Shown: positions 11,547 through 47,363 of the stretch, in pieces
How positions within the stretch are numbered: position 1 is the first letter of the stretch
Layout of the letters: each line of letters starts with the position of its first letter
Assembly: GCF_002854065.1 (NCBI RefSeq)
Contig: NZ_CP024147.1
From: Escherichia coli
Lineage (GTDB): Bacteria; Pseudomonadota; Gammaproteobacteria; Enterobacterales; Enterobacteriaceae
Reading direction: 5' to 3' (one strand)
DNA length: 64,000 nt
Position numbers and translations under genes: made by a program
The notes under the pieces: generated by a model
Database searches by the model: none
What the model was told of the DNA's origin: nothing
Seen by the model: the letters and a program-made list of their open reading frames with translations, nothing else

Positions 11547-12620
11547 TTAGCGGGAGTAACTGACGGCAGCGGGCAGTGAAGGCGGGGAGAACAACAGATC
11601 GCTGAATGCACGCTGTGAAAATTTTCTTACCAGCAAGCCCGCAACAGTACAGATGAACAAACTGACAAAGGGATAAACCAGCAGGAGTGTCAGTTCGACT
11701 TGCGGCGACCAGCGTGCTGCGTTCATTTGCGCAAGCAGAGTTAAGCTGAATATTTCAACCAGAATGCGATGGGTGGTGTAGATAGCAATGGTGTTGGAGC
11801 CAATCACATTCAGCAGGCTGGTGGAGCGCATACCGAATCGTTGCTCGTATTGATAAAACAGCTTCATGATCACCACAATCGATACCAGCGACAACAGCAG
11901 CGAGATAGTAAACAACCAGGCACTGACCGCCAGAACGGTCAGCAAAGAAGCCATCAGCAGATAGCGGCGCAACGGCACCTCTTTAACACAGGTCATTAAT
12001 GTTGCGCCAAACCATGCGCCAAGGCTGTAATAAGGCAAATTGCGGATCACACTGTTCATTCCCCACCACGGCGTGGGAACGAAATTAACCGCCACACTCA
12101 GCAGTACAAACAAGGCGAATAGTGGCAGCGCCAGACGGCTAAAAATTTTACATACCACGAAATAGACAATTAACGCATACAGATACCACAAGCTGGTGCT
12201 GGCGGTGATCATCCCGTGCAGGAACTCACCGGTGGAATCGGCATACGCGGCATTGGAAGCGTTGCTTAAATCGCGCTCAGGTGCCAGCCACTGGTTCAGC
12301 GCACTTAACGCCAGCCACTGCACCACGCCCCAAAGCGCCAGCACCCAAAAGATGCTCCAGATGCGTTTATCGAGACAATTTCCCCACGGTACGCTGTCGA
12401 TATAGCGGCGAATCAAATAGCCGGAAATAAAGAAAAAAACCGGCATACGAAAGGGGGCAAGGTAAAGATTGAAATAGATCCAGCATTTGCTCAGGACTTC
12501 CGATAACGGATGCTGAAAAGTGGTCATATGCGGATAAAAGGTAATGACCGAGTGATAAATCACGACCAGACAAATACATAACCCTTTGATCTGGTTAATC
12601 CATAGCTCTTTTTGTTTCAT
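11547..12620 (-). CDS. ycfT: inner membrane acyltransferase-family protein YcfT
   Basis: 357-aa polytopic membrane ORF. Confidence 0.82.
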   Translation of the reverse strand: MKQKELWINQIKGLCICLVVIYHSVITFYPHMTTFQHPLSEVLSKCWIYFNLYLAPFRMPVFFFISGYLIRRYIDSVPWGNCLDKRIWSIFWVLALWGVVQWLALSALNQWLAPERDLSNASNAAYADSTGEFLHGMITASTSLWYLYALIVYFVVCKIFSRLALPLFALFVLLSVAVNFVPTPWWGMNSVIRNLPYYSLGAWFGATLMTCVKEVPLRRYLLMASLLTVLAVSAWLFTISLLLSLVSIVVIMKLFYQYEQRFGMRSTSLLNVIGSNTIAIYTTHRILVEIFSLTLLAQMNAARWSPQVELTLLLVYPFVSLFICTVAGLLVRKFSQRAFSDLLFSPPSLPAAVSYSR

Positions 12621-12770
12621 CAGGACAACACGCTCTTTTTTAATTTACATGCGGTTGATCCTGCGGGTTATGACCCGAGGTGTAATGGGTATCTGTCTGT
12701 ATTGGATAATTTTTCAGATTAAGATCAGGCGGCAAGATTGATGATAAAACATGGCAATTTAGCCGATTGA

Positions 12771-16019
<3,249 letters not shown>

Positions 16020-16047
16020 AGGCAGTACATTAAAACAAGGAGCGGCA

Positions 16048-16959
16048 ATGTATTACGGGTTTGATATTGGTGGAACAAAAATTGCGCTTGGCGTGTTTGA
16101 TAGCGGTCGGCAGTTGCAGTTGGAAAAGCGGGTGCCGACACCGCGTGACAGCTATGACGCATTTTTAGATGCAGTGTGTGAGCTGGTAGCTGAAGCTGAC
16201 CAACGTTTTGGCTGTAAAGGTTCTGTCGGCATCGGTATTCCGGGAATGCCGGAAACAGAAGATGGTACGCTGTATGCCGCCAATGTCCCCGCTGCCAGCG
16301 GTAAACCGCTGCGTGCCGACCTGAGCGCACGTCTTGATCGCGATGTACGCCTTGATAACGATGCCAACTGTTTTGCCCTTTCAGAAGCCTGGGATGATGA
16401 ATTTACGCAATATCCACTGGTGATGGGGTTGATTCTCGGCACCGGCGTTGGCGGCGGGCTGATTTTCAACGGCAAACCGATTACCGGTAAAAGCTACATT
16501 ACCGGCGAGTTTGGCCATATGCGTCTGCCGGTTGATGCGTTAACCATGATGGGGTTGGATTTCCCGTTACGCCGCTGCGGCTGTGGTCAGCATGGCTGCA
16601 TTGAAAATTATCTGTCTGGTCGCGGTTTTGCGTGGCTGTATCAACACTATTATCATCAACCGTTGCAGGCTCCCGAAATTATTGCGCTTTATGATCAAGG
16701 CGATGAGCAGGCAAGGGCGCACGTTGAGCGTTATCTGGATTTATTAGCGGTTTGTCTGGGAAATATCCTGACCATTGTTGACCCTGACCTGGTCGTCATT
16801 GGTGGTGGTTTATCGAATTTCCCGGCAATCACAACGCAACTGGCGGACAGGCCGCCTCGTCATCTCTTACCTGTAGCTCGTGTTCCGCGCATTGAACGCG
16901 CGCGCCACGGTGATGCGGGAGGAATGCGTGGTGCGGCCTTCCTACATCTAACCGATTAA
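16048..16959 (+). CDS. nagK: N-acetyl-D-glucosamine kinase
   Basis: 303-aa ROK-family product [18 protein letters not shown]... Confidence 0.9.
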
Positions 16960-19233: not shown

Positions 19234-20280
19234 TTAACGTCCTGCTTTCAGCTTCTGATAATACTCTTCATAAATGCTGCTGGCTGCGCCAACGTCATTC
19301 TGCCATTCGCCATTTTTAATGGTTTCAGCATCCGGGTAGAGCGTCTTATCGTTCGCCACTTCTGGACTTAACAGCTTACGCGCCGCAAGGTTTGGCGTTG
19401 GATAACCGATAGTTTCAGCAACCTGTTTTGCCACATCCGGGCGCAGCAGGAAGTTGATCAATTTCAGCGCGCCTTCTTTGTTTTTGGCATTTGCCGGGAT
19501 CGCCAGGCTGTCCATCCAGAATATGCCGCCTTCTTTCGGCCACACCACGTCAATAGGCGTACCCGCCTGGCGTGCAACGAAAGCAGAACCGTTCCAGATC
19601 ATGCCGAGGTTAACTTCGCCTTCCATGTACGGGTTAGCCGGGTTATCGGAGTTAAACGCTGCGACGTTTGGCATCAGTTTTTTCAGCTCGTTATATGCAG
19701 CTTCAATCTCTTTCGGATCGGTGGTGTTACCGGAGTAGCCCAGCTTACGCAGCGCCATCTGGAACACTTCACGGGCATCGTCGGTCAACAGCAGGCTGCC
19801 TTTGTACTCTGGCTTCCACAGATCGGCCCAGCTGGTGACAGATTTTGGATCCACCGCATCACCGTTAACACCAATCGCCGTCGCACCCCAGATATACGGA
19901 ATGGAGTAATCGTTATTCGGGTCAAACGGCTTATTGAGCATGTCTGGATCGAGATTGCTGAAGTTCGTTAACTTCGACTTGTCGATCTTCTGGATCATCC
20001 CTTCTTTACGCATTTTATCGACGTAATAGGTTGAAGGAACCACCAGGTCATAGGCACCGTCTTTGTACGTTTTCAGCTTGGCATACATGGTTTCGTTCGA
20101 CTCGTAAGTCGAATAGATAACCTTAATACCGGTTTCTTTGGTGAACTGTTCAAGCAGTCCTGGCGGCACGTACTCGGTCCAGTTGTAGAAATACAGCGTG
20201 TTGTTGTCATCGGCGTGAGCGGCGCTCATGCCCAGTGCCAGAGCACCCGCCGCGAGCAGGTGGCGTGACCATTTTTTCAT
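19234..20280 (-). CDS. potD: spermidine/putrescine ABC transporter periplasmic binding protein
   Basis: 348-aa product with signal peptide; final gene of the potABCD operon. Confidence 0.95.
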   Translation of the reverse strand: MKKWSRHLLAAGALALGMSAAHADDNNTLYFYNWTEYVPPGLLEQFTKETGIKVIYSTYESNETMYAKLKTYKDGAYDLVVPSTYYVDKMRKEGMIQKIDKSKLTNFSNLDPDMLNKPFDPNNDYSIPYIWGATAIGVNGDAVDPKSVTSWADLWKPEYKGSLLLTDDAREVFQMALRKLGYSGNTTDPKEIEAAYNELKKLMPNVAAFNSDNPANPYMEGEVNLGMIWNGSAFVARQAGTPIDVVWPKEGGIFWMDSLAIPANAKNKEGALKLINFLLRPDVAKQVAETIGYPTPNLAARKLLSPEVANDKTLYPDAETIKNGEWQNDVGAASSIYEEYYQKLKAGR

Positions 20281-25691: not shown

Positions 25692-25766
25692 GTTAAGCAT
25701 CCACAGGCTGGTATCTGCAACCGATTATAACGGATGCTTAACGTAATGCGTGAAGTATGGACATAT

Positions 25767-27227
25767 TTATTCATCTTTCGGCGCAGAATGCTGGCGACCA
25801 AAAATCACCTCCATCCGCGCACCGCCCAGCATGCTCTCTCCGGCGACGATTTTACCCTCATATTGCTCGGTGATTTCGCGGGCTACCGCCAGCCCCACAC
25901 CTTGCCCAGGGCGTAAAGTATCAACCCGTTGACCACGGTCGAAAATGACCTCTCGCTTGCTTAATGGAATACCGGGTCCATCATCCTCGACCACAATATA
26001 GAGATGCTCGTCGGTTTGCCTTGCAGAAATTTCGACAAACTCGAGGCAATATTTACAGGCATTATCCAGCACATTGCCCATCACCTCGACAAAATCGTTC
26101 TGCTCACCGACAAAGCTGATCTCTGGCGAAATATCGAGAGAGATATTGACCCCTTTGCGTTGATACACTTTGTTCAGCGCCGAGGTGAGATTGTCCAGCA
26201 GTGGGGCGACCGGATGCAGCTCGCGGCTGAGCAATGTCCCGCCGCGCATACTGGCACGATGCAGGTAGTAGCCAATTTGCTGTGAAATGCGGCTGATTTG
26301 CTCCAGCATTACCGGTTCAGCATCACTGACGCTCATCTTTTCACTACGCAGAGAACGCAGCGTACTTTGCAGCACCGCCAGTGGCGTTTTCAGACTATGG
26401 GTCAGGTCGGTGAGCGTTGTACGGTATTTGTCGTAACGTTCGCGTTCGCTTTTTAACAATCGGTTCAGGTTTCGTACCAGACTGGTCAGTTCTCGCGTTG
26501 TGGCTGGATTGAGCAATTCGCGGTTATGTTCTTCCAGTTCGCGGACTTCTTTTGCCAGGGCTTCGATGGGGCGTAAACTCCACCAGGCGGCGACCCACAG
26601 CAGCGGGATCACTAACAGCAGATTGGCTGAGAGCACATAGATAAACCAGCTCCAGACCATATAGGAACTTTTTAGCTCCACCGGAATGGTATCCACCACC
26701 ACAATGGTTAACTTTGGCATCCGCGATGTTGCCGGGTAGACGTTTACCGCCACCGAGTGGGTCATCTCCGCGTCGTCATCATCTTCCCGCACTTCCTGCA
26801 ACTGTTGCTGTATCGAATGATCTCCACTCAGCAAGAGGCTGGTATCGTTAACATCCGCTTCAATTTCATGAAAACCATTCGATTTCAGCCAGTCAGGCTG
26901 GATCATCTTCATCAGCCAGGGCACGTCACGTTGCGCCCATAAAAGCTGCCCGTTCTCATCATAAATTAGCGTCATGGTGGGGCTTTGCTTGTCGATATTT
27001 TCGGGTAACTCGACATGCAACTTATTGTTTTCCCACTTCGCAAGGGTATAGAACAGATTGCTCTCGCCACGTAACAGCCGAAACGTAGTTTTATCGAAAC
27101 TGACGCTATAACCGATCAGCGCGACCATTCCGTAGGCAAGCGAAAGCACCAGTACTACCGCTGCCGTTGCCAACAGAAAACGTACCCGCAGCGAGAGCGG
27201 GAAAAAAAGACGCAGTAATTTTTTCAT
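25767..27227 (-). CDS. phoQ: sensor histidine kinase PhoQ
   Basis: 486-aa product with two TM segments, periplasmic sensor domain, H-box ([12 protein letters not shown]) and ATPase motifs. Confidence 0.95.
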
Positions 27228-33054: not shown

Positions 33055-33503
33055 TAGAAGGAAGTCCACTTAATACGGTCTTGAGGTTTGGCAATCAGAT
33101 TGTATTTTTCCTGGGTACGAGTCGAAACCCTGTAAAGACTCATCGACAGTGAAACCCAACCAATCCACGGGACCCAACGAGCGATAATTGCAGCAAGCTT
33201 ATTAGATTTCTGCATCCTTACACCCACTGGTGTATGAACAGAAATACCAAAAGGCATGCGTGCATCTCTCATCAGTATACGCGCATACTTTGAGACAACA
33301 CTTGTTCCCAGGGTTGCCCCTTGCGGCTTCGCTCTTGTACCCAGCCAAGGTTGACCAGATAAGATTGCTGCACCTGATACCGAATCAATCCCCAATTCCT
33401 TACAGAATTCTTCAAGGAATATGACGTTGAGTAGTTCTATTTTGGACAGGTTCGGGTGTCCTCTATAGAAATATGTTCCATTGCGTTCTTCGGTAGTATC
33501 CAT
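33054..33503 (-). CDS. hypothetical 149-aa protein with C-proximal hydrophobic segment (family unassigned)
   Basis: ATG preceded by GGAG at a 9-nt spacing; hydrophobic stretch LAAIIARWVPWIGWVSLSMSLY; AGA/AGG Arg codons (atypical for E. coli core genes). Confidence 0.5.
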   Translation of the reverse strand: MDTTEERNGTYFYRGHPNLSKIELLNVIFLEEFCKELGIDSVSGAAILSGQPWLGTRAKPQGATLGTSVVSKYARILMRDARMPFGISVHTPVGVRMQKSNKLAAIIARWVPWIGWVSLSMSLYRVSTRTQEKYNLIAKPQDRIKWTSF

Positions 33504-34089: not shown

Positions 34090-35340
34090 ATGGAAAGTAA
34101 AGTAGTTGTTCCGGCACAAGGCAAGAAGATCACCCTGCAAAACGGCAAACTCAACGTTCCTGAAAATCCGATTATCCCTTACATTGAAGGTGATGGAATC
34201 GGTGTAGATGTAACCCCAGCCATGCTGAAAGTGGTCGACGCTGCAGTCGAGAAAGCCTATAAAGGTGAGCGTAAAATCTCCTGGATGGAAATTTACACCG
34301 GTGAAAAATCCACACAGGTTTATGGTCAGGACGTCTGGTTGCCTGCTGAAACTCTTGATCTGATTCGTGAATATCGCGTTGCTATTAAAGGCCCGCTGAC
34401 CACTCCGGTTGGTGGCGGTATTCGTTCTCTCAACGTTGCCCTGCGCCAGGAACTGGATCTCTACATCTGCCTGCGTCCGGTACGTTACTATCAGGGCACT
34501 CCAAGCCCGGTTAAACACCCTGAACTGACCGATATGGTTATCTTCCGTGAAAACTCGGAAGACATTTATGCGGGTATCGAATGGAAAGCTGACTCTGCCG
34601 ACGCCGAGAAAGTGATTAAATTCCTGCGTGAAGAGATGGGCGTGAAGAAAATTCGCTTCCCGGAACATTGCGGTATCGGTATTAAGCCGTGTTCTGAAGA
34701 AGGCACCAAACGTCTGGTTCGTGCAGCGATCGAATACGCAATTGCTAACGATCGTGACTCTGTGACCCTGGTGCACAAAGGCAACATCATGAAGTTCACC
34801 GAAGGCGCGTTTAAAGACTGGGGCTACCAGCTGGCGCGTGAAGAATTTGGCGGTGAACTGATCGACGGCGGCCCGTGGCTGAAAGTTAAAAACCCGAATA
34901 CCGGCAAAGAGATCGTCATTAAAGACGTGATTGCTGATGCATTCCTGCAACAGATCCTGCTGCGTCCGGCTGAATATGATGTTATCGCCTGTATGAACCT
35001 GAACGGTGACTACATTTCTGACGCCCTGGCAGCGCAGGTTGGCGGTATCGGTATCGCCCCTGGTGCAAACATCGGTGACGAATGCGCCCTGTTTGAAGCC
35101 ACCCACGGTACTGCGCCGAAATATGCCGGTCAGGACAAAGTAAACCCAGGCTCTATTATACTCTCTGCTGAGATGATGTTACGCCACATGGGTTGGACCG
35201 AAGCCGCAGACCTGATTGTTAAAGGTATGGAAGGCGCAATCAATGCGAAGACCGTAACCTATGACTTCGAACGTTTGATGGAAGGCGCTAAACTGCTGAA
35301 ATGTTCAGAGTTTGGTGATGCGATCATCAAGAATATGTAA
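34090..35340 (+). CDS. icd: isocitrate dehydrogenase (NADP)
   Basis: 416-aa product [38 protein letters not shown]...; preceded by GGAGAGG RBS. Confidence 0.97.
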
Positions 35341-35364
35341 TCACTACATGTGTTAAATATTTAA

Positions 35365-35396
35365 ACGGGCGTATAACACGCCCGTTGTTTTATTTA
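35365..35396 (+). terminator. rho-independent terminator of icd
   Basis: acgggcgt-ataac-acgcccgt hairpin (8-bp stem) followed by a T-rich run. Confidence 0.7.
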
Positions 35397-35442
35397 TGTA
35401 GATATTATTAATAGCATATCGAGCATATTTATATAAAACCCA

Positions 35443-35766
35443 TTACTTGAGCCCATACGGGCATATTTTTATAATACAACTCTTATGCAAACATTTATTT
35501 GTTATTTCGCTTTCTCCTGGAGGACACTCTTGACTGCTTTTGAGTAAACTCCATAAATTCTTGTTGAATGGTGCAATGTTATAAATAGTAATAGGATATT
35601 CTTTATCCTTAAGGATAATACCAGGCTTAACAGGTGTAAATATACTTCCAGGAGGAAGAAATATAGTAGATTGATACCAGATGATCATTTTCATATCACC
35701 CCATATGGCTGAAAAAGATATGCCGCATGTAGGTTGAATTACCGTGTCAATTACTACCCACTTCAT
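35443..35766 (-). CDS. iraM: anti-adaptor protein IraM (RpoS stabiliser)
   Basis: 107-aa product [32 protein letters not shown]... matching my recollection of IraM/YcgW; AT-rich context. Confidence 0.82.
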
Positions 35767-36461
35767 TTGTTATGTCTTATCCCACGGTATTTAATATAGT
35801 TCATTTGGATGTTCATTTCTTTATTTTGCATATGAGTATATTACCCCTTCAAAAAATAAATTAATTAAAACGATTGCTTATATAAAACAAAACTTAAAGC
35901 AAGGAATCTCAATGGATGTTAAACAAAATGAGATTTAGTGAAAACAATAAATTATTCACTTCGTTTTAGATTTGTTTAGCTATAATGTTATACATTCAAA
36001 TGACTGAACATCCTGTAATTAAAACATAGCCTTTATGCTACTTTGTGCCAATTTGCTAAACATTATGGTTGCCTTTTTATATAACGATAATAATGAATAT
36101 AAGCATGACATGAGAATAAGGTTTCAATTTTTGAGTTATATAGGAAAGGTTTAACCTGTTCCTGGCTAAAATACATATAACTGGATGATGACTAAACCAA
36201 AACACATGTGCGTTAAGTATTGAAACGGGCGTATGGCACGCCCGTTGGTTTTATAAATATATTAACCGTTATAAAATAACGTATAGAAAGTCAAGTGATC
36301 ACATTTCAAATATCAATTTGATAGTATTGGCCTGGTGATTATTTATGGGTAGCAATAAAAGGACAGTATTTATCATCCATAGGGATAGTCTCTGTACTTT
36401 TATTCCCATTATGCTAATGCCTTACTGAATTATGAAGCATTTCTTAAGCATCCAACTTAAG

Positions 36462-38022: not shown

Positions 38023-39234
38023 TTATTTTTTCTCCGGCCACGCAACTGAAGGGATACCATTCAATTTAGCTTTAGCAAACAGATCCCCCTGAAACATCTC
38101 AATTCCTGCGGATTCAAGCCACATCCACTCTTCTGGTGTTGCCACGCCCATAGCACTGACTTGAATTTCAAGTGATGTACAGCATTTTATGATCGCCTGA
38201 ATAATTGCCTGCCGTGGTCCGCTTTTATGAACATTGGTAATCAATTCCTGACTGATTTTAATTCTGTCAGGCTGGAAGCGTGACAGGAGTAACAAACCAG
38301 CAAAACCTGCGCCAAAATGATCAATTGCTACACTGATACCGGCAGCCTTTAGCGATTTAACCGCTTCGGCAAACTCATCAAACCGAGATATGACTTCACT
38401 TTCAGTAAATTCAACGATGATTTGTTCAGGCACCAGACCATTGGCCTTTATTTCATCAAGTAAAAAAGAGACTGCGTCAGGCTCGTTAACCAGGGTCATA
38501 GGTAATAGATTGATAGATATCATTTTATCACCGAGCTCAAGTGCGTGTGCCATCGCGAATACAAGCGCCTTACTTTTGAGATCCGCTGTGTAGATTTCCC
38601 CGTCTTTACGCTGCCCAACCGCTATAGCTGACGGGCTGTCTTCATTTTTTTGCACAATGGCTTCAAAAGCGATTATCCGCCGCGATAAGGGATCAACAAT
38701 AGGATGAAAGGCAAAGTGGTCGTTTATATTTGGTGAAAGGGTACAGGAATCAAGTTCTTTATCAGATCTGTCAGCGATAAAAAGCCAGGAGTCTTCAGCA
38801 GGGATCTCGAAATAGGTTGATTGTTCGGTTGCAAGGACAAAAGTACGAAAAAATTGTAGCGCTCTGTCATCATAAGTTAGCTGAAATTTTGATGTGCCTT
38901 TGTCGAATACGGCCTGTAAAACGTCATCTCGCTCGTGCAGGCGTAAATCAAATAATTCCATTCCTGCTTTACCAAAACGGCGAGCAGGCGCGTAATCGCA
39001 CAACAGTTCAACAATATTATAGTGCCGAGGATCCTGGCATATAGCCCGATATATCATTTGAACCTGTTCTTCCGGACCTTCCAGAAGCTGGAAAAAATGA
39101 GAACCATTAAACAGTAAGATCCCTGTTACGTCAGACTGCATGTTCCTGCGATTTGCTATCGAAACCATTTCTTCGATTTTTTTGACAGGTTCGTCGTCAC
39201 GTATATGGCTACGATAAATAAGGGTGGTAAGCAT
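38023..39234 (-). CDS. bluF: blue-light sensor BluF (BLUF plus degenerate EAL domain; YcgF)
   Basis: 403-aa product from MLTTLIYRSHIRDD...; BLUF N-terminus and EAL-like C-terminus. Confidence 0.9.
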   Translation of the reverse strand: MLTTLIYRSHIRDDEPVKKIEEMVSIANRRNMQSDVTGILLFNGSHFFQLLEGPEEQVQMIYRAICQDPRHYNIVELLCDYAPARRFGKAGMELFDLRLHERDDVLQAVFDKGTSKFQLTYDDRALQFFRTFVLATEQSTYFEIPAEDSWLFIADRSDKELDSCTLSPNINDHFAFHPIVDPLSRRIIAFEAIVQKNEDSPSAIAVGQRKDGEIYTADLKSKALVFAMAHALELGDKMISINLLPMTLVNEPDAVSFLLDEIKANGLVPEQIIVEFTESEVISRFDEFAEAVKSLKAAGISVAIDHFGAGFAGLLLLSRFQPDRIKISQELITNVHKSGPRQAIIQAIIKCCTSLEIQVSAMGVATPEEWMWLESAGIEMFQGDLFAKAKLNGIPSVAWPEKK

Positions 39235-39547: not shown

Positions 39548-39784
39548 ATGCATCAAAATTCAGTGACTTTAGATTCTGCGGGAGCAATCACTCGTTACTT
39601 TGCAAAAGCTAACTTGCCTACTCAGCAGGAAACTCTCGGGGAAATTGTGACTGAGATTTTGAAAGATGGACGTAATCTGAGTCGAAAGTCGCTTTGTGCC
39701 AAACTTCTTTGCCGACTGGAACAAGCGACAGGGGAAGAGGAACAGAAACATTATAATGCACTAATTGGGTTGCTTTTTGAATAA
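39548..39784 (+). CDS. ycgZ: small protein YcgZ (connector of two-component signalling)
   Basis: 78-aa ORF with good RBS, divergent from bluF. Confidence 0.85.
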   Translation: MHQNSVTLDSAGAITRYFAKANLPTQQETLGEIVTEILKDGRNLSRKSLCAKLLCRLEQATGEEEQKHYNALIGLLFE

Positions 39785-39813
39785 TGCAACAGCCTGATTA
39801 TTTGGATTTGCCC

Positions 39814-40719
39814 CTATATTTCCAGACATCTGTTATCACTTAACCCATTACAAGCCCGCTGCCGCAGATATTCCCGTGGCGAGCGATAACCCAGCGCACT
39901 ATGCGGATGCCATTCGTTATAATGCTCGAACGCCTCTGCAAGGTTCTTTGCTGCCGTTAACCCGTCTGGTTTGGGCATGATACTGATGTAGTCACGCTTT
40001 ATCGTTTTCACGAAGCTCTCTGCTATTCCGTTACTCTCCGGACTCCGCACCGCCGTGTTCTTCGGTTCAAGTCCCAACATCCGGGCGAACTGGCGTGTTT
40101 CATTAGCCCGGTAGCATGAACCATTATCCGTCAGCCACTCCACTGGAGACGACGGAAGATCGTTGCCGAAGCGGCGTTCCACCGCTCCCAGCATGACGTC
40201 CTGTACTGTTTCACTGTTGAAGCCGCCGGTAGTGACCGCCCAGTGCAGTGCCTCACGATCACAGCAGTCCAGCGCGAACGTGACACGCAGTCTCTCTCCG
40301 TTATCACAGCAGAACTCGAACCCGTCAGAGCACCATCGCTGATTGCTTTCTTTCACGGCCACTCTGCCTGTATGTGCCCGTTTCGATGGCGGTACAGCAG
40401 GTTTTCGCTCAAGCAACAGCGCATTCTAGCGCATGATCCGGTAAACACGTTTGGCATTGATCGCAGGCATACCATCAAGTTCTGCCTGTCTGCGAAGCAG
40501 CGCCCATACCCGACGATAACCATACGTGGGCAGCTCTCCGATAACATGGTGTATACGGAGAAGCACATCCGTATCATCAGTGTGACGACTGCGGCGGCCA
40601 TCCATCCAGTCATCGGTTCGTCTGAGAATGACGTGCAACTGCGCACGCGACACCCGGAGACAACGGCTGACTAAGCTTACTCCCCATCCCCGGGCAATAA
40701 GGGCGCGTGCGCTATCCAC
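39814..40719 (-). pseudogene. insD: IS2 transposase OrfB (InsD) interrupted by in-frame TAG at codon 98
   Basis: Frame [12 protein letters not shown]...AKRVYRIMR / TAG (rc of plus 40426-40428) / [20 protein letters not shown]...; canonical IS2 has Gln at this position as I recall. Confidence 0.75.
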
Positions 40720-41042
40720 TTTTTTGCCCGTCCATATTCAACGGCTTCTTTGAGGAGTTCATTTTCCATCGTTTTCTTGCCGAGCAGGCGCTGGAGTTCT
40801 TTAATCTGCTTCATGGCGGCAGCAAGTTCAGAGGCAGGAACAACCTGTTCTCCGGCGGCGACAGCAGTAAGACTTCCTTCCTGGTATTGCTTACGCCAGA
40901 GAAATAACTGGCTGGCTGCTACACCATGTTGCCGGGCAACGAGGGAGACCGTCATCCCCGGTTCAAAGCTCTGCTGAACAATTGCGATCTTTTCCTGTGT
41001 GGTACGCCGTCTGCGTTTCTCCGGCCCTAAGACATCAATCAT
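40677..41042 (-). CDS. insC: IS2 transposase OrfA (InsC)
   Basis: 121-aa product [34 protein letters not shown]... Confidence 0.9.
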
Positions 41043-41162
41043 CTGTTCTCCAATGACTAGTCTAAAAACTAGTATTAAGACTATCACTTATTTAAGTGAT
41101 ATTGGTTGTCTGGAGATTCAGGGGGCCAGTCTATTATTTAACAGGTTAGCTATGAAGTCGTT

Positions 41163-41435
41163 ATGAAGACATCTGATAATGAAAGTATAAAATATGAAAT
41201 TACTGGCCAGGCGGTGCTCCAGATACTGCGCATGAAGATAAATTTTTCGGTGCAGACTCTTATTAAGCAATTACTCGTAATGAAATCGGCTGAGGAAAAT
41301 GCTTTCCGACGAGATTTAATTGACAGCATAATTCGTGATTTTAGCAACAGTGATACAGGAGGGCCAAACCGAAGAACAGCGATAGCTGACAATAAAAGTA
41401 TGTTCAATGGTAAGAAAATAAACAGAATACATTAA
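41163..41435 (+). CDS. ymgA: small protein YmgA (connector/biofilm-related)
   Basis: 90-aa ORF, first gene after the IS2. Confidence 0.82.
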   Translation: MKTSDNESIKYEITGQAVLQILRMKINFSVQTLIKQLLVMKSAEENAFRRDLIDSIIRDFSNSDTGGPNRRTAIADNKSMFNGKKINRIH

Positions 41436-41463: not shown

Positions 41464-41730
41464 ATGCTTGAAGATACTACAATTCATAATGCAATAACTG
41501 ATAAAGCGTTATCAAGTTACTTTCGCAGTTCGGGTAATTTGTTAGAAGAAGAGTCAGCAGTGTTAGGGCAGGCTGTGACTAATTTAATGCTTTCAGGCGA
41601 TAATGTTAATAATAAAAATATTATCTTAAGTCTGATACACTCCCTGGAAACAACAAGTGATATTCTCAAAGCTGACGTGATCAGAAAAACACTGGAAATC
41701 GTGTTGCGATACACAGCGGATGACATGTAA
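41464..41730 (+). CDS. ariR: AriR (YmgB), regulator of acid resistance/biofilm
   Basis: 88-aa ORF with GAGAGG RBS. Confidence 0.85.
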
Positions 41731-41842: not shown

Positions 41843-42091
41843 ATGAATAATTCAATCCCAGAGAGATTTATTTTTCAATGTGCTTTGTTTAAAAATCTCG
41901 AGAGGGAGGTATTCATGACGCATGGGTATGTTGATAGTCATATTATTGATCAGGCTTTACGCTTGCGTTTAAAAGATGAAACCAGTGTGATTCTTTCTGA
42001 TCTCTATCTGCAAATCTTGCAGTACATTGAAATGCATAAGACTACACTAACGGATATCATTATTAATGACAGGGAATCCGTGCTCTCTTAG
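41843..42091 (+). CDS. ymgC: small protein YmgC
   Basis: 82-aa ORF, TAG stop. Confidence 0.78.
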   Translation: MNNSIPERFIFQCALFKNLEREVFMTHGYVDSHIIDQALRLRLKDETSVILSDLYLQILQYIEMHKTTLTDIIINDRESVLS

Positions 42092-44699: not shown

Positions 44700-47363
44700 A
44701 TGAAACTGAAAAAACTCCCCGGGTTTAGTTTAGGACTTATTGCTCTGGCGGTGGGTAATGCATATGCAACACAATTGTTGGATGATTATAGTATAATTTC
44801 CTATATAACCGATGAAGAATCGCCGATTCAAATCAAAGATAATACTTTGAAAAGTAATGAAGAATATCTAACCACTGAAGACGAAAGCCATGCTGTGAAA
44901 GTGGATGACGGTGTAACTGGATATATAAATAATGCCAGTGTGATGACTAGTGGTGATGGATCTTATGGTATTTCTGTTGATAGTCAAAACAAAGTATTAT
45001 ATATAAGCGATAGCGATATTAAGACCTCTGGAAGCGTATCTAACAAAGAAAATAACCAAGATGTTAATGGAGGGATAACAGCCAGCGCAGTAGTCAGTGA
45101 ATTTGGTGGCACCATCGTTATGAATGGTGATAATTTAGTCGAGACGGGGGGGGCATATTCAGCGGGACTTTTAAGTCAGGTTAATGATTCTGGAAATGTG
45201 GAAAATAACACTCGTCTTGAAACCACAGATAAAACGATCATTGTTACCTCTGGGGAAAATGCAGTAGGTGTTCTTGCATGTTCAAGACCTGGAGAGTCTC
45301 GAACATGTGTCGATGCTGTAGATGATGAAGTTAGTGATTCTAACAGTTACGAAGTTATTAGCCGTGCTGATTTAAAAATGAATGGTGGTTCCATAACAAC
45401 TAATGGCATTAATAGCTATGGTGCTTATGCTAATGGGAAAAAAGCATATATTAATTTAGATTATGTGGCACTTGAAACTGTGGCTGATGGAAGTTATGCA
45501 GTTGCTATTCGACAAGGTAACATTGATATAAAAAATAGTTCTATTACAACAACAGGCACTAAAGCCCCCATTGCAAAAATATACAATGGTGGAGAGTTAT
45601 TTTTTTCCAATGTCACCGCGGTATCAGTAAAAGATAAAGGAATATCAATTGATGCATCAAATATCGATTCTCATGCCAAAATAGCACTATCAAGTGTTGA
45701 ACTTTCAAGTGCTTTGGATAGTATTGATGTTAACAAAACTACAACGAATTTAAGCATCCTTAATCGAAGTATTATCACGCCTGGTAATAATATTCTGGTT
45801 AATAATACTGGGGGTGACTTAAACATAATTTCGTCCAACTCTACTCTAAATGGAGCGACTAAACTCGTTAGCGGCACAACCACGCTGAAGCTTTCAGAAA
45901 ACACAATCTGGAATATGAAAGATGACTCCGTTGTTACCCATCTGACTAATTCAGACAGTATTATCAATCTTTCGTATGATGATGGTCAAACATTTACCCA
46001 GGGAAAAACGTTAACCGTAAAAGGTAATTATGTCGGTAATAATGGTCAGCTTAATATCCGCACTGTATTAGGTGATGATAAATCAGCTACGGATAGACTT
46101 ATTGTGGAGGGTAATACTTCGGGTTCAACTACCGTCTATGTGAAAAATGCTGGAGGAAGCGGCGCGGCCACGCTAAATGGGATCGAACTCATAACTGTGA
46201 ATGGCGATGAATCTCCAGCAGATGCCTTCAGACAAGGTGATGCAAGGATTGCAGCTGGAGCTTTCGAATATCAACTAAAACAACAAGGCAAAAACTGGTA
46301 TTTGACAAGTTATCAGTCAGTGAATGAGGAGGATAACAGCTCAGAGGGAAATTCAGAATCAACAGAAACGCCCACCCCCGTCCTGCGCCCCGAAGCTGGA
46401 AGTTACGTCGCCAACCTGGCAGCCGCTAACACTCTTTTTGTTATGCGTCTGAATGACCGTGCAGGTGAAACGCGCTACATCGATCCTGTAACTGAACAGG
46501 AGCGTTCAAGCCGACTTTGGCTACGTCAAATTGGCGGGCATAATGCCTGGCGTGACAGCAACGGACAGTTGAGAACGACCTCGCATCGCTACGTCTCGCA
46601 GTTAGGGGCCGATCTGTTAACCGGTGGTTTTACCGACAGTGACAGTTGGCGTTTGGGAGTGATGGCTGGTTATGCCCGCGACTACAACTCAACTCATTCC
46701 AGCGTGTCGGATTATCGTTCGAAAGGGAGTGTCAGAGGCTATAGCGCAGGGCTGTATGCCACCTGGTTTGCCGATGACATCAGTAAAAAAGGCGCATACA
46801 TTGACGCCTGGGCGCAATATAGCTGGTTTAAAAACTCGGTGAAAGGGGATGAATTAGCCTATGAATCCTATAGCGCGAAAGGCGCAACCGTCTCGCTGGA
46901 AGCGGGTTACGGCTTTGCCCTGAATAAATCCTTTGGTCTGGAAGCGGCGAAATATACGTGGATCTTCCAGCCACAGGCACAGGCTATCTGGATGGGCGTC
47001 GATCATAATGCGCACACCGAAGCCAATGGCTCACGTATTGAGAATGACGCAAATAACAACATCCAGACCCGACTTGGTTTCCGCACTTTTATTCGTACTC
47101 AGGAGAAAAACAGCGGTCCGCACGGTGACGACTTTGAACCTTTTGTTGAAATGAACTGGATCCATAACAGTAAAGATTTTGCTGTCTCAATGAACGGCGT
47201 GAAAGTCGAACAAGACGGGGCGCGTAATTTGGGGGAAATTAAACTTGGCGTAAATGGCAATCTGAATCCGGCGGCCAGCGTCTGGGGTAATGTGGGCGTG
47301 CAGCTGGGTGATAATGGCTACAATGACACCGCAGTGATGGTGGGCCTGAAATATAAGTTCTGA
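44700..47363 (+). CDS. ycgH: autotransporter (type Va) adhesin-like protein YcgH, full-length ORF
   Basis: 887-aa ORF: signal peptide MKLKKLPGFSLGLIALAVGNAYA, Ser/Thr/Gly/Asn-rich passenger, C-terminal beta-barrel ending ...VGLKYKF. Confidence 0.85.
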   Translation: MKLKKLPGFSLGLIALAVGNAYATQLLDDYSIISYITDEESPIQIKDNTLKSNEEYLTTEDESHAVKVDDGVTGYINNASVMTSGDGSYGISVDSQNKVLYISDSDIKTSGSVSNKENNQDVNGGITASAVVSEFGGTIVMNGDNLVETGGAYSAGLLSQVNDSGNVENNTRLETTDKTIIVTSGENAVGVLACSRPGESRTCVDAVDDEVSDSNSYEVISRADLKMNGGSITTNGINSYGAYANGKKAYINLDYVALETVADGSYAVAIRQGNIDIKNSSITTTGTKAPIAKIYNGGELFFSNVTAVSVKDKGISIDASNIDSHAKIALSSVELSSALDSIDVNKTTTNLSILNRSIITPGNNILVNNTGGDLNIISSNSTLNGATKLVSGTTTLKLSENTIWNMKDDSVVTHLTNSDSIINLSYDDGQTFTQGKTLTVKGNYVGNNGQLNIRTVLGDDKSATDRLIVEGNTSGSTTVYVKNAGGSGAATLNGIELITVNGDESPADAFRQGDARIAAGAFEYQLKQQGKNWYLTSYQSVNEEDNSSEGNSESTETPTPVLRPEAGSYVANLAAANTLFVMRLNDRAGETRYIDPVTEQERSSRLWLRQIGGHNAWRDSNGQLRTTSHRYVSQLGADLLTGGFTDSDSWRLGVMAGYARDYNSTHSSVSDYRSKGSVRGYSAGLYATWFADDISKKGAYIDAWAQYSWFKNSVKGDELAYESYSAKGATVSLEAGYGFALNKSFGLEAAKYTWIFQPQAQAIWMGVDHNAHTEANGSRIENDANNNIQTRLGFRTFIRTQEKNSGPHGDDFEPFVEMNWIHNSKDFAVSMNGVKVEQDGARNLGEIKLGVNGNLNPAASVWGNVGVQLGDNGYNDTAVMVGLKYKF

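Follow-up and report, generated by a model that had tools for sequence, protein, structure and literature searches.

A private IS2 insertion between ycgZ and ymgA in Escherichia coli, with an interrupted transposase gene and predicted polarity on ymgA-ariR-ymgC

The ycgZ-ymgA-ariR-ymgC operon of the Escherichia coli strain analyzed here is split by a full-length copy of the IS3-family element IS2, which occupies 1331 bp on the minus strand at positions 39803-41133 of the window (the whole 64-kb stretch of DNA, to which all positions refer unless stated otherwise). Taken as a whole, the explanation that we consider likely is a recent insertion, private to this lineage, of an element whose transposase would be truncated and which would lower expression of the downstream genes by polarity. 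The evidence for each part of this explanation, and its bearing on the alternatives, is set out below.

Results

IS2 occupies the spacer between ycgZ and ymgA

The element was delimited through its ends. The 44-mer of the IS2 right end, TGGATTTGCCCCTATATTTCCAGACATCTGTTATCACTTAACCC, matches exactly at 39803-39846 on the plus strand, and the 53-mer of the left end, TAGACTGGCCCCCTGAATCTCC..., matches exactly at 41081-41133 on the minus strand. Neither end sequence occurs in shuffles of the window, and a search with both ends found no further IS2 copy within the 64 kb. The arms of the inverted repeats reach inward to 39843 and 41092, in agreement with the published lengths of 41 bp for IRR and 42 bp for IRL (PMC3299598), and are imperfect as in the IS2 group, beginning TAGACTGG... 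in IRL and ending ...CAAATCCA in IRR. Both ends are identical to those of the annotated IS2 of strain CUWW06. A preliminary description of this DNA had placed a complete IS2 of 1331 bp, with TTATT on both sides, 18 nt past ycgZ, and the exact end matches bear out these coordinates. The word complete holds for the length, for both ends and for insC, and fails for insD, which is broken by an in-frame TAG (Table 1).

Over its whole length the element lies 1 nt from the annotated copy of CUWW06, 2 nt from a K-12 copy and 2-3 nt from the copies in strains 639, STEC384 and NRZ106056. In addition to this near-identity and the 1331-bp length, it shares with the IS2 group the overlapping orfA and orfB with an A6G window and the 5-bp target duplication. 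What it lacks is an uninterrupted 409-aa OrfAB with the DDE (rve) domain, codon 206 being TAG. Judged by these features, the element is IS2 by descent, as a defective copy.

Table 1. Coordinates of the IS2 element, the operon genes and the features compared with them
Feature	Position	Strand	Description
ycgZ	39548-39784	+	78 aa; intact; heads the operon; YmgB family (Pfam); 2 substitutions relative to K-12
Hypothetical IRR/target hybrid promoter	39797-39824	-	would read antisense into ycgZ; from consensus scan
Left target duplication	39798-39802		TTATT
IRR	39803-39843	-	41 bp; donor end; adjoins ycgZ
orfB/insD remnant past the stop	39814-40425	-	200 aa; rve + rve_3 (Pfam); DDE catalytic domain
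Premature TAG	40426-40428	-	CAG in other copies
orfB/insD N-terminal fragment	40429-40719	-	97 aa; HTH_21 (Pfam)
orfA/insC	40677-41042	-	121 aa; HTH_Tnp_1 (Pfam); intact
A6G -1 frameshift window	40719-40725	-	AAAAAAG; IS2 nt 409-415; intact; function according to PMC3299598
IRL	41092-41133	-	42 bp; recipient end; adjoins ymgA; contains the inward-reading PIRL (PMC3299598)
Right target duplication	41134-41138		TTATT
ymgA	41163-41435	+	90 aa; intact
ariR/ymgB	41464-41730	+	88 aa; intact
ymgC	41843-42091	+	82 aa; intact; identical to K-12
icd	34090-35340		
Region after icd, with iraM	35340-35770		
ISKpn26 of HeN100	NZ_CP044443.1, 2295-3506		corresponds to window 41145-41148
IS copies of CUWW06	12066-13397, 15780-16549, 19415-20184, 25754-26523		positions in CUWW06
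Window equivalents of the CUWW06 IS sites	33061-33065, 35435-35443, 38293-38301, 45190-45198		

The spacer runs for 18 nt from the end of the ycgZ stop codon at 39784 to the first base of IS2, and the ymgA ATG at 41163 lies 29 nt past the other end of the element. From stop codon to ATG the distance is thereby 1378 nt, compared with 42 nt without IS2. Once IS2 and one TTATT are removed, the resulting 70-mer has exact matches in K-12 MG1655, in CUWW06 and at four other E. coli loci, and each of these six empty sites has a single TTATT and the restored 42-bp spacer between ycgZ and ymgA. Because the restored 70-mer is exact in other genomes with a single TTATT, we attribute the flanking pentamers to simple transposition with a 5-bp duplication rather than to a chance repeat. 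This agrees with the preliminary description, which had proposed simple transposition into the ycgZ-ymgA spacer and knew of no IS2 at this site in K-12 MG1655, where the site is indeed empty. The five other IS2 copies that were compared are likewise flanked by 5-bp duplications (CGCAG, CCTCG, ATTAG, ACTTC and ATTAC). A canonical IS2 would have entered the 42-bp spacer by the copy-out/paste-in route of the IS3 family, duplicating TTATT in the process.

On both sides of the element the gene order is that of the operon and its neighbors, with bluR-bluF on the minus strand followed by ycgZ-ymgA-ariR-ymgC-pdeG on the plus strand, and all of these genes have their K-12 lengths with 0-10 substitutions each. 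This assignment is also that of the RefSeq annotation for the near-identical locus in CUWW06. Read from the minus strand, the transposase genes run antisense to ycgZ-ymgA-ariR-ymgC, as had been described. The operon promoter, PycgZ, is presumably repressed by BluR, an assumption that we take from the preliminary description and the RefSeq gene annotation. A published study (PMC6900184) reports one promoter for the whole operon, located upstream of ycgZ; RNA polymerase with either sigma-38 or sigma-70 uses it, and MarA activates it. The same study describes a complex of YcgZ, YmgA and YmgB/AriR that contacts the kinase domain of RcsC and stimulates it, and whose action lowers CsgD and curli via RprA.

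A nonsense codon separates the two halves of the transposase

The only base that differs from the annotated intact IS2 of CUWW06 is a C-to-T change at IS2 nt 706 (window position 40428), a position that is T in the window and C in every other copy included in the base-by-base comparison. The change converts CAG to TAG, corresponding to Q98* in InsD and Q206* in OrfAB, so that the modelled product of the A6G -1 frameshift ends after residue 205 of 409. The TAG sits between the HTH_21 and rve domains (Pfam), and the list of open reading frames accordingly splits orfB into 97 aa and 200 aa. A stop at this position severs the DDE domain from the DNA-binding half of the protein. With OrfAB ending before its DDE domain, the window copy is predicted to be incapable of autonomous movement, a prediction that turns on one base in a single assembly. 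The change would leave a fixed, non-autonomous element whose OrfA repressor and two ends are still intact.

The distribution of the nonsense change was followed with a 41-mer centred on T706, in which megablast seeding is impossible unless the variant base is shared. The exact 41-mer is absent from complete E. coli genomes, and matches with one further mismatch are present in two of them, strains C10 and C11. Both matches fall within IS3-family transposase genes; the annotation of the C10 gene is that of a pseudogene with a frameshift and an internal stop. When the 97-aa InsD fragment was looked up as an exact protein, most matches were contigs cut at the IS, and the true ones are the Logan contigs L006-L009. 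In L006 and L007 (SRR23869753 and ERR14043660) the element lies at another locus, beside a cobW-family gene, and its IS2 differs at 21 positions. By these comparisons, the same CAG-to-TAG nonsense change has arisen independently in other IS2 copies.

A recent insertion, private to its lineage

None of the 5,426 complete RefSeq E. coli genomes gave a contiguous match to 500-bp queries spanning the left and the right junction, and neither the GTDB representative genomes nor the JGI metagenome contigs contain the exact junction 37-mer. The preliminary description had suggested a comparison with reference genomes; the uninterrupted, single-TTATT site is present in K-12 MG1655 and at the five other loci compared, and the junction in 0 of 5,426. 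The closest genome is that of CUWW06, from wastewater in Thailand, which has 99.9-100% identity over a backbone of about 28 kb, with about 8 substitutions. CUWW06 has the empty site and is the sole 100% match to the restored operon among the 5,426 complete genomes. Within the same 30 kb it carries four IS insertions of its own, one of IS2 and three of IS1, and the window is without all four. Its IS2 adjoins a DUF1493 gene, and the IS1 copies lie after icd, inside bluF and inside ycgH.

The lineage of the window and CUWW06 are near-identical in sequence but differ by five IS events. This near-identity, together with the empty site of CUWW06 and the absence of the junction elsewhere, marks the IS2 insertion, on comparative grounds, as recent and as private to the source lineage. 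The comparison also shows IS elements turning over rapidly, measured against point substitutions, in this lineage. As a separate observation on the shared backbone, icd is followed almost directly by iraM in the window, the e14 prophage, which lies between the two genes in K-12, being absent here as it is in CUWW06.

Other insertions in the operon

Of the 5426 genomes, 4880 have the restored operon uninterrupted and 87 have a partial one; in the other 459 it was not detected. IS2 or IS2-like elements were found within it in 11 of the 5,426, representing about 7 independent events in both orientations. Those in the same orientation as in the window comprise an IS2 inside ymgA of strains 639 and 455, IS2 at two sites in the ariR-ymgC spacer (STEC384 and STEC379; NRZ106056 and fS149a) and an IS2-like element inside ymgA of VTB96933v. 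A query with the IS inverted recovered four further genomes, representing three events, in which IS2 or an IS2-like element is turned the other way. An orientation bias, which was considered and rejected, had been an artefact of a search that joined matches on the same strand only, as these three opposite events make plain.

Elements of other families have entered the operon as well. An ISKpn26 (IS5 family, TTAG duplication) occupies the same 42-bp spacer in HeN100, 10-13 bp from the IS2 site, and an IS1 lies within the operon in SCPM-O-B-7615. In HeN100, an unrelated strain, bluR and pdeG are both interrupted by internal stop codons. The operon region is AT-rich, and a published report (PMC11335895) describes AT-rich DNA bound by H-NS as a general hotspot of transposition. 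A crude density estimate gives about 4 genomes expected to carry IS2 in the 750 bp searched, against 11 seen; enrichment at the operon may be mild, 2-3 fold at most, on counts that are clonally non-independent. Owing to this non-independence, we make no claim that the operon is a hotspot.

Promoter context at the ends of IS2

The outward -35 element of IS2, which serves the minicircle promoter Pjunc as well as fusion promoters (those of ampC and acrEF among them), is contained in IRR (PMC3299598, PMC9330008). In the window it is IRL, with its inward-reading PIRL, that lies next to ymgA, while IRR is directed at the 3' end of ycgZ. A crude consensus scan, of a kind that would miss sigma-S or weak promoters within IS2 or ymgA able to drive ariR-ymgC, found no promoter-like site on the plus strand between ycgZ and ymgA. 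Since IRL adjoins ymgA and no promoter-like site is directed toward it, a new promoter for ymgA is unlikely. The preliminary description had offered a changed promoter context for ymgA as an alternative to polarity and had proposed a search for outward promoter activity at the IS2 end beside that gene; the position of the outward -35 in IRR and the empty plus-strand scan both weigh against this alternative, and activation of ymgA by an outward IS2 promoter was set aside.

At the other end of the element, the scan yielded a hypothetical hybrid promoter directed antisense into ycgZ. Its TGGAAA lies in IRR, its spacer is the last 16 nt of IRR, and its AATAAT consists of the TTATT duplication and one flanking base. 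From the published 17-nt spacer, counted through the 1-bp junction spacer, we infer that TGGAAA sits at the -35 position of Pjunc; the hybrid has 16 nt. The site matches the consensus at 9 of 12 positions, which is the chance level for an AT-rich region, and a promoter antisense to ycgZ is accordingly a low-probability hypothesis.

The insertion is predicted to be polar

RNA made from the operon strand over IS2 runs antisense to the transposase genes, and no long reading frame follows ycgZ in it. It is rich in C and poor in G, with C exceeding G in 81% of 78-nt sub-windows compared with 42% over the whole window. A scan for hairpins resembling intrinsic terminators found none on the operon strand within IS2, and any polarity would therefore have to be Rho-dependent. 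Transcripts from PycgZ must cross about 1.38 kb of untranslated, C-rich antisense-IS2 RNA, within which Rho would terminate most of them. Production of YmgA, AriR and YmgC would then fall, that of YcgZ would continue, and the connector complex of YcgZ, YmgA and AriR on RcsC would fail to form. As a consequence, induction of PycgZ by blue light, cold, sigma-S or MarA would stop damping CsgD and curli through Rcs and RprA. We regard this chain, from termination by Rho of most PycgZ transcripts within IS2, through the shortage of YmgA, AriR and YmgC with YcgZ made, to the failure of the connector complex, as probable. The polarity argument is strengthened by the single promoter upstream of ycgZ that the operon study reports.

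Discussion

The reading of the element as a non-autonomous copy and of the insertion as polar has to be weighed against alternatives. If the TAG in orfB were a sequencing or consensus error, IS2 would be fully functional, and the codon is indeed a single base in a multicopy repeat, seen in one assembly only. Substitution errors are uncommon in finished assemblies, however, and polishing of a repeat with reads from several copies would pull the consensus toward the common C and not toward a private T. As the independent occurrence of CAG-to-TAG in L006/L007 and C10/C11 makes the change biologically plausible, we hold an error to be very unlikely. An insertion with little effect on expression, in which read-through from PycgZ, or a promoter in IRL, in ymgA or farther downstream, would keep ymgA-ariR-ymgC transcribed, appears unlikely. 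Rho termination is never complete, ymgA, ariR and ymgC all remain full-length, and the consensus scan placed two promoter-like plus-strand sites inside ymgA and ariR (41166-41193 and 41575-41604). Yet such sites occur at chance frequency (8 found compared with 7.2 expected), the first of them begins past the ymgA start codon, and intact downstream genes would be expected anyway after a very recent insertion. The one promoter reported for the operon in PMC6900184 and the known outward -35, lying in an IRR that faces away from ymgA, argue in the same direction.

The recurrence of insertions in the operon raises the question of selection, in that a knock-down of YmgA and AriR could de-repress curli and biofilm formation or alter acid resistance, and IS hits would recur for that reason. 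The independent insertions elsewhere, namely IS2 or IS2-like elements in 11 genomes, ISKpn26 in HeN100 and IS1 in SCPM-O-B-7615, are consistent with this possibility, as is the IS1 inside bluF of the close relative CUWW06. We nevertheless consider it quite unlikely, given that the operon is uninterrupted in the great majority of genomes (4880/5426), that some 4 genomes with IS2 are expected by chance, that the enrichment of at most 2-3 fold comes from counts that are not independent, and that the hotspot effect described in PMC11335895 would explain recurrence in an AT-rich region without selection. An extended version, in which the operon would be doubly disabled by Rho polarity and by an antisense ycgZ fusion promoter, the recurrent IS hits being selected to uncouple light, cold and MarA from Rcs repression of curli, seems to us very unlikely.

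The preferred reading, a recent private insertion with Rho-dependent polarity, finds parallels in well-known systems. The canonical K-12 IS2, the yaiP-yaiO copy of MG1655 (WP_088895425.1), has the same 1331-bp length, identical IRL and IRR, and the same orfA and A6G window; both copies have an orfB frame with rve and a 5-bp duplication, and they lie 2 nt apart overall. The window copy differs from it in the C706T stop, in an OrfAB without the DDE domain and in an insertion site not seen elsewhere. In the classical polar mutation galEP3 (gal3), at the start of the gal operon, IS2 is likewise positioned between a promoter and the downstream genes, and the galEP3 IS2 has been used as a set of Rho-dependent terminators (PMC3737525). 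That case concerns another operon, and the Rho precedent may concern the other strand of IS2; polarity in galEP3 is classical, that in the window predicted. The IS2 fusion promoters of ampC, acrEF and neo, together with Pjunc, involve the same element and the same outward -35 in IRR (PMC9330008, PMC3299598). The IRR of the window faces ycgZ and not the orphaned genes; the one direction open to a fusion promoter (TGGAAA-16-AATAAT) would be antisense into ycgZ, and it could not activate ymgA. The insertions in HeN100, in 639/455 and in STEC384/NRZ106056 affect the same operon with the downstream genes intact, that of HeN100 in the same spacer, but they differ from the one described here in position, duplication or IS family. 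They are independent events, and none has the junction found in the window. Set beside these cases, the IS2 of the window is an ordinary, strain-specific insertion of a familiar kind.

The wider significance of the insertion is small. For the IS2 family, the stop codon in the transposase shows that the activity of a full-length IS copy with intact ends is not to be presumed. The source strain and CUWW06, with near-identical backbones in which the site is filled in one and empty in the other, offer a clean natural comparison from which IS2 polarity could be measured. The source strain itself is predicted to be a natural knock-down of YmgA, AriR and YmgC, small proteins through which the BluF/BluR and MarA inputs reach the Rcs phosphorelay, curli and acid resistance, and its biofilm or Congo-red phenotypes may for this reason differ from those of K-12.
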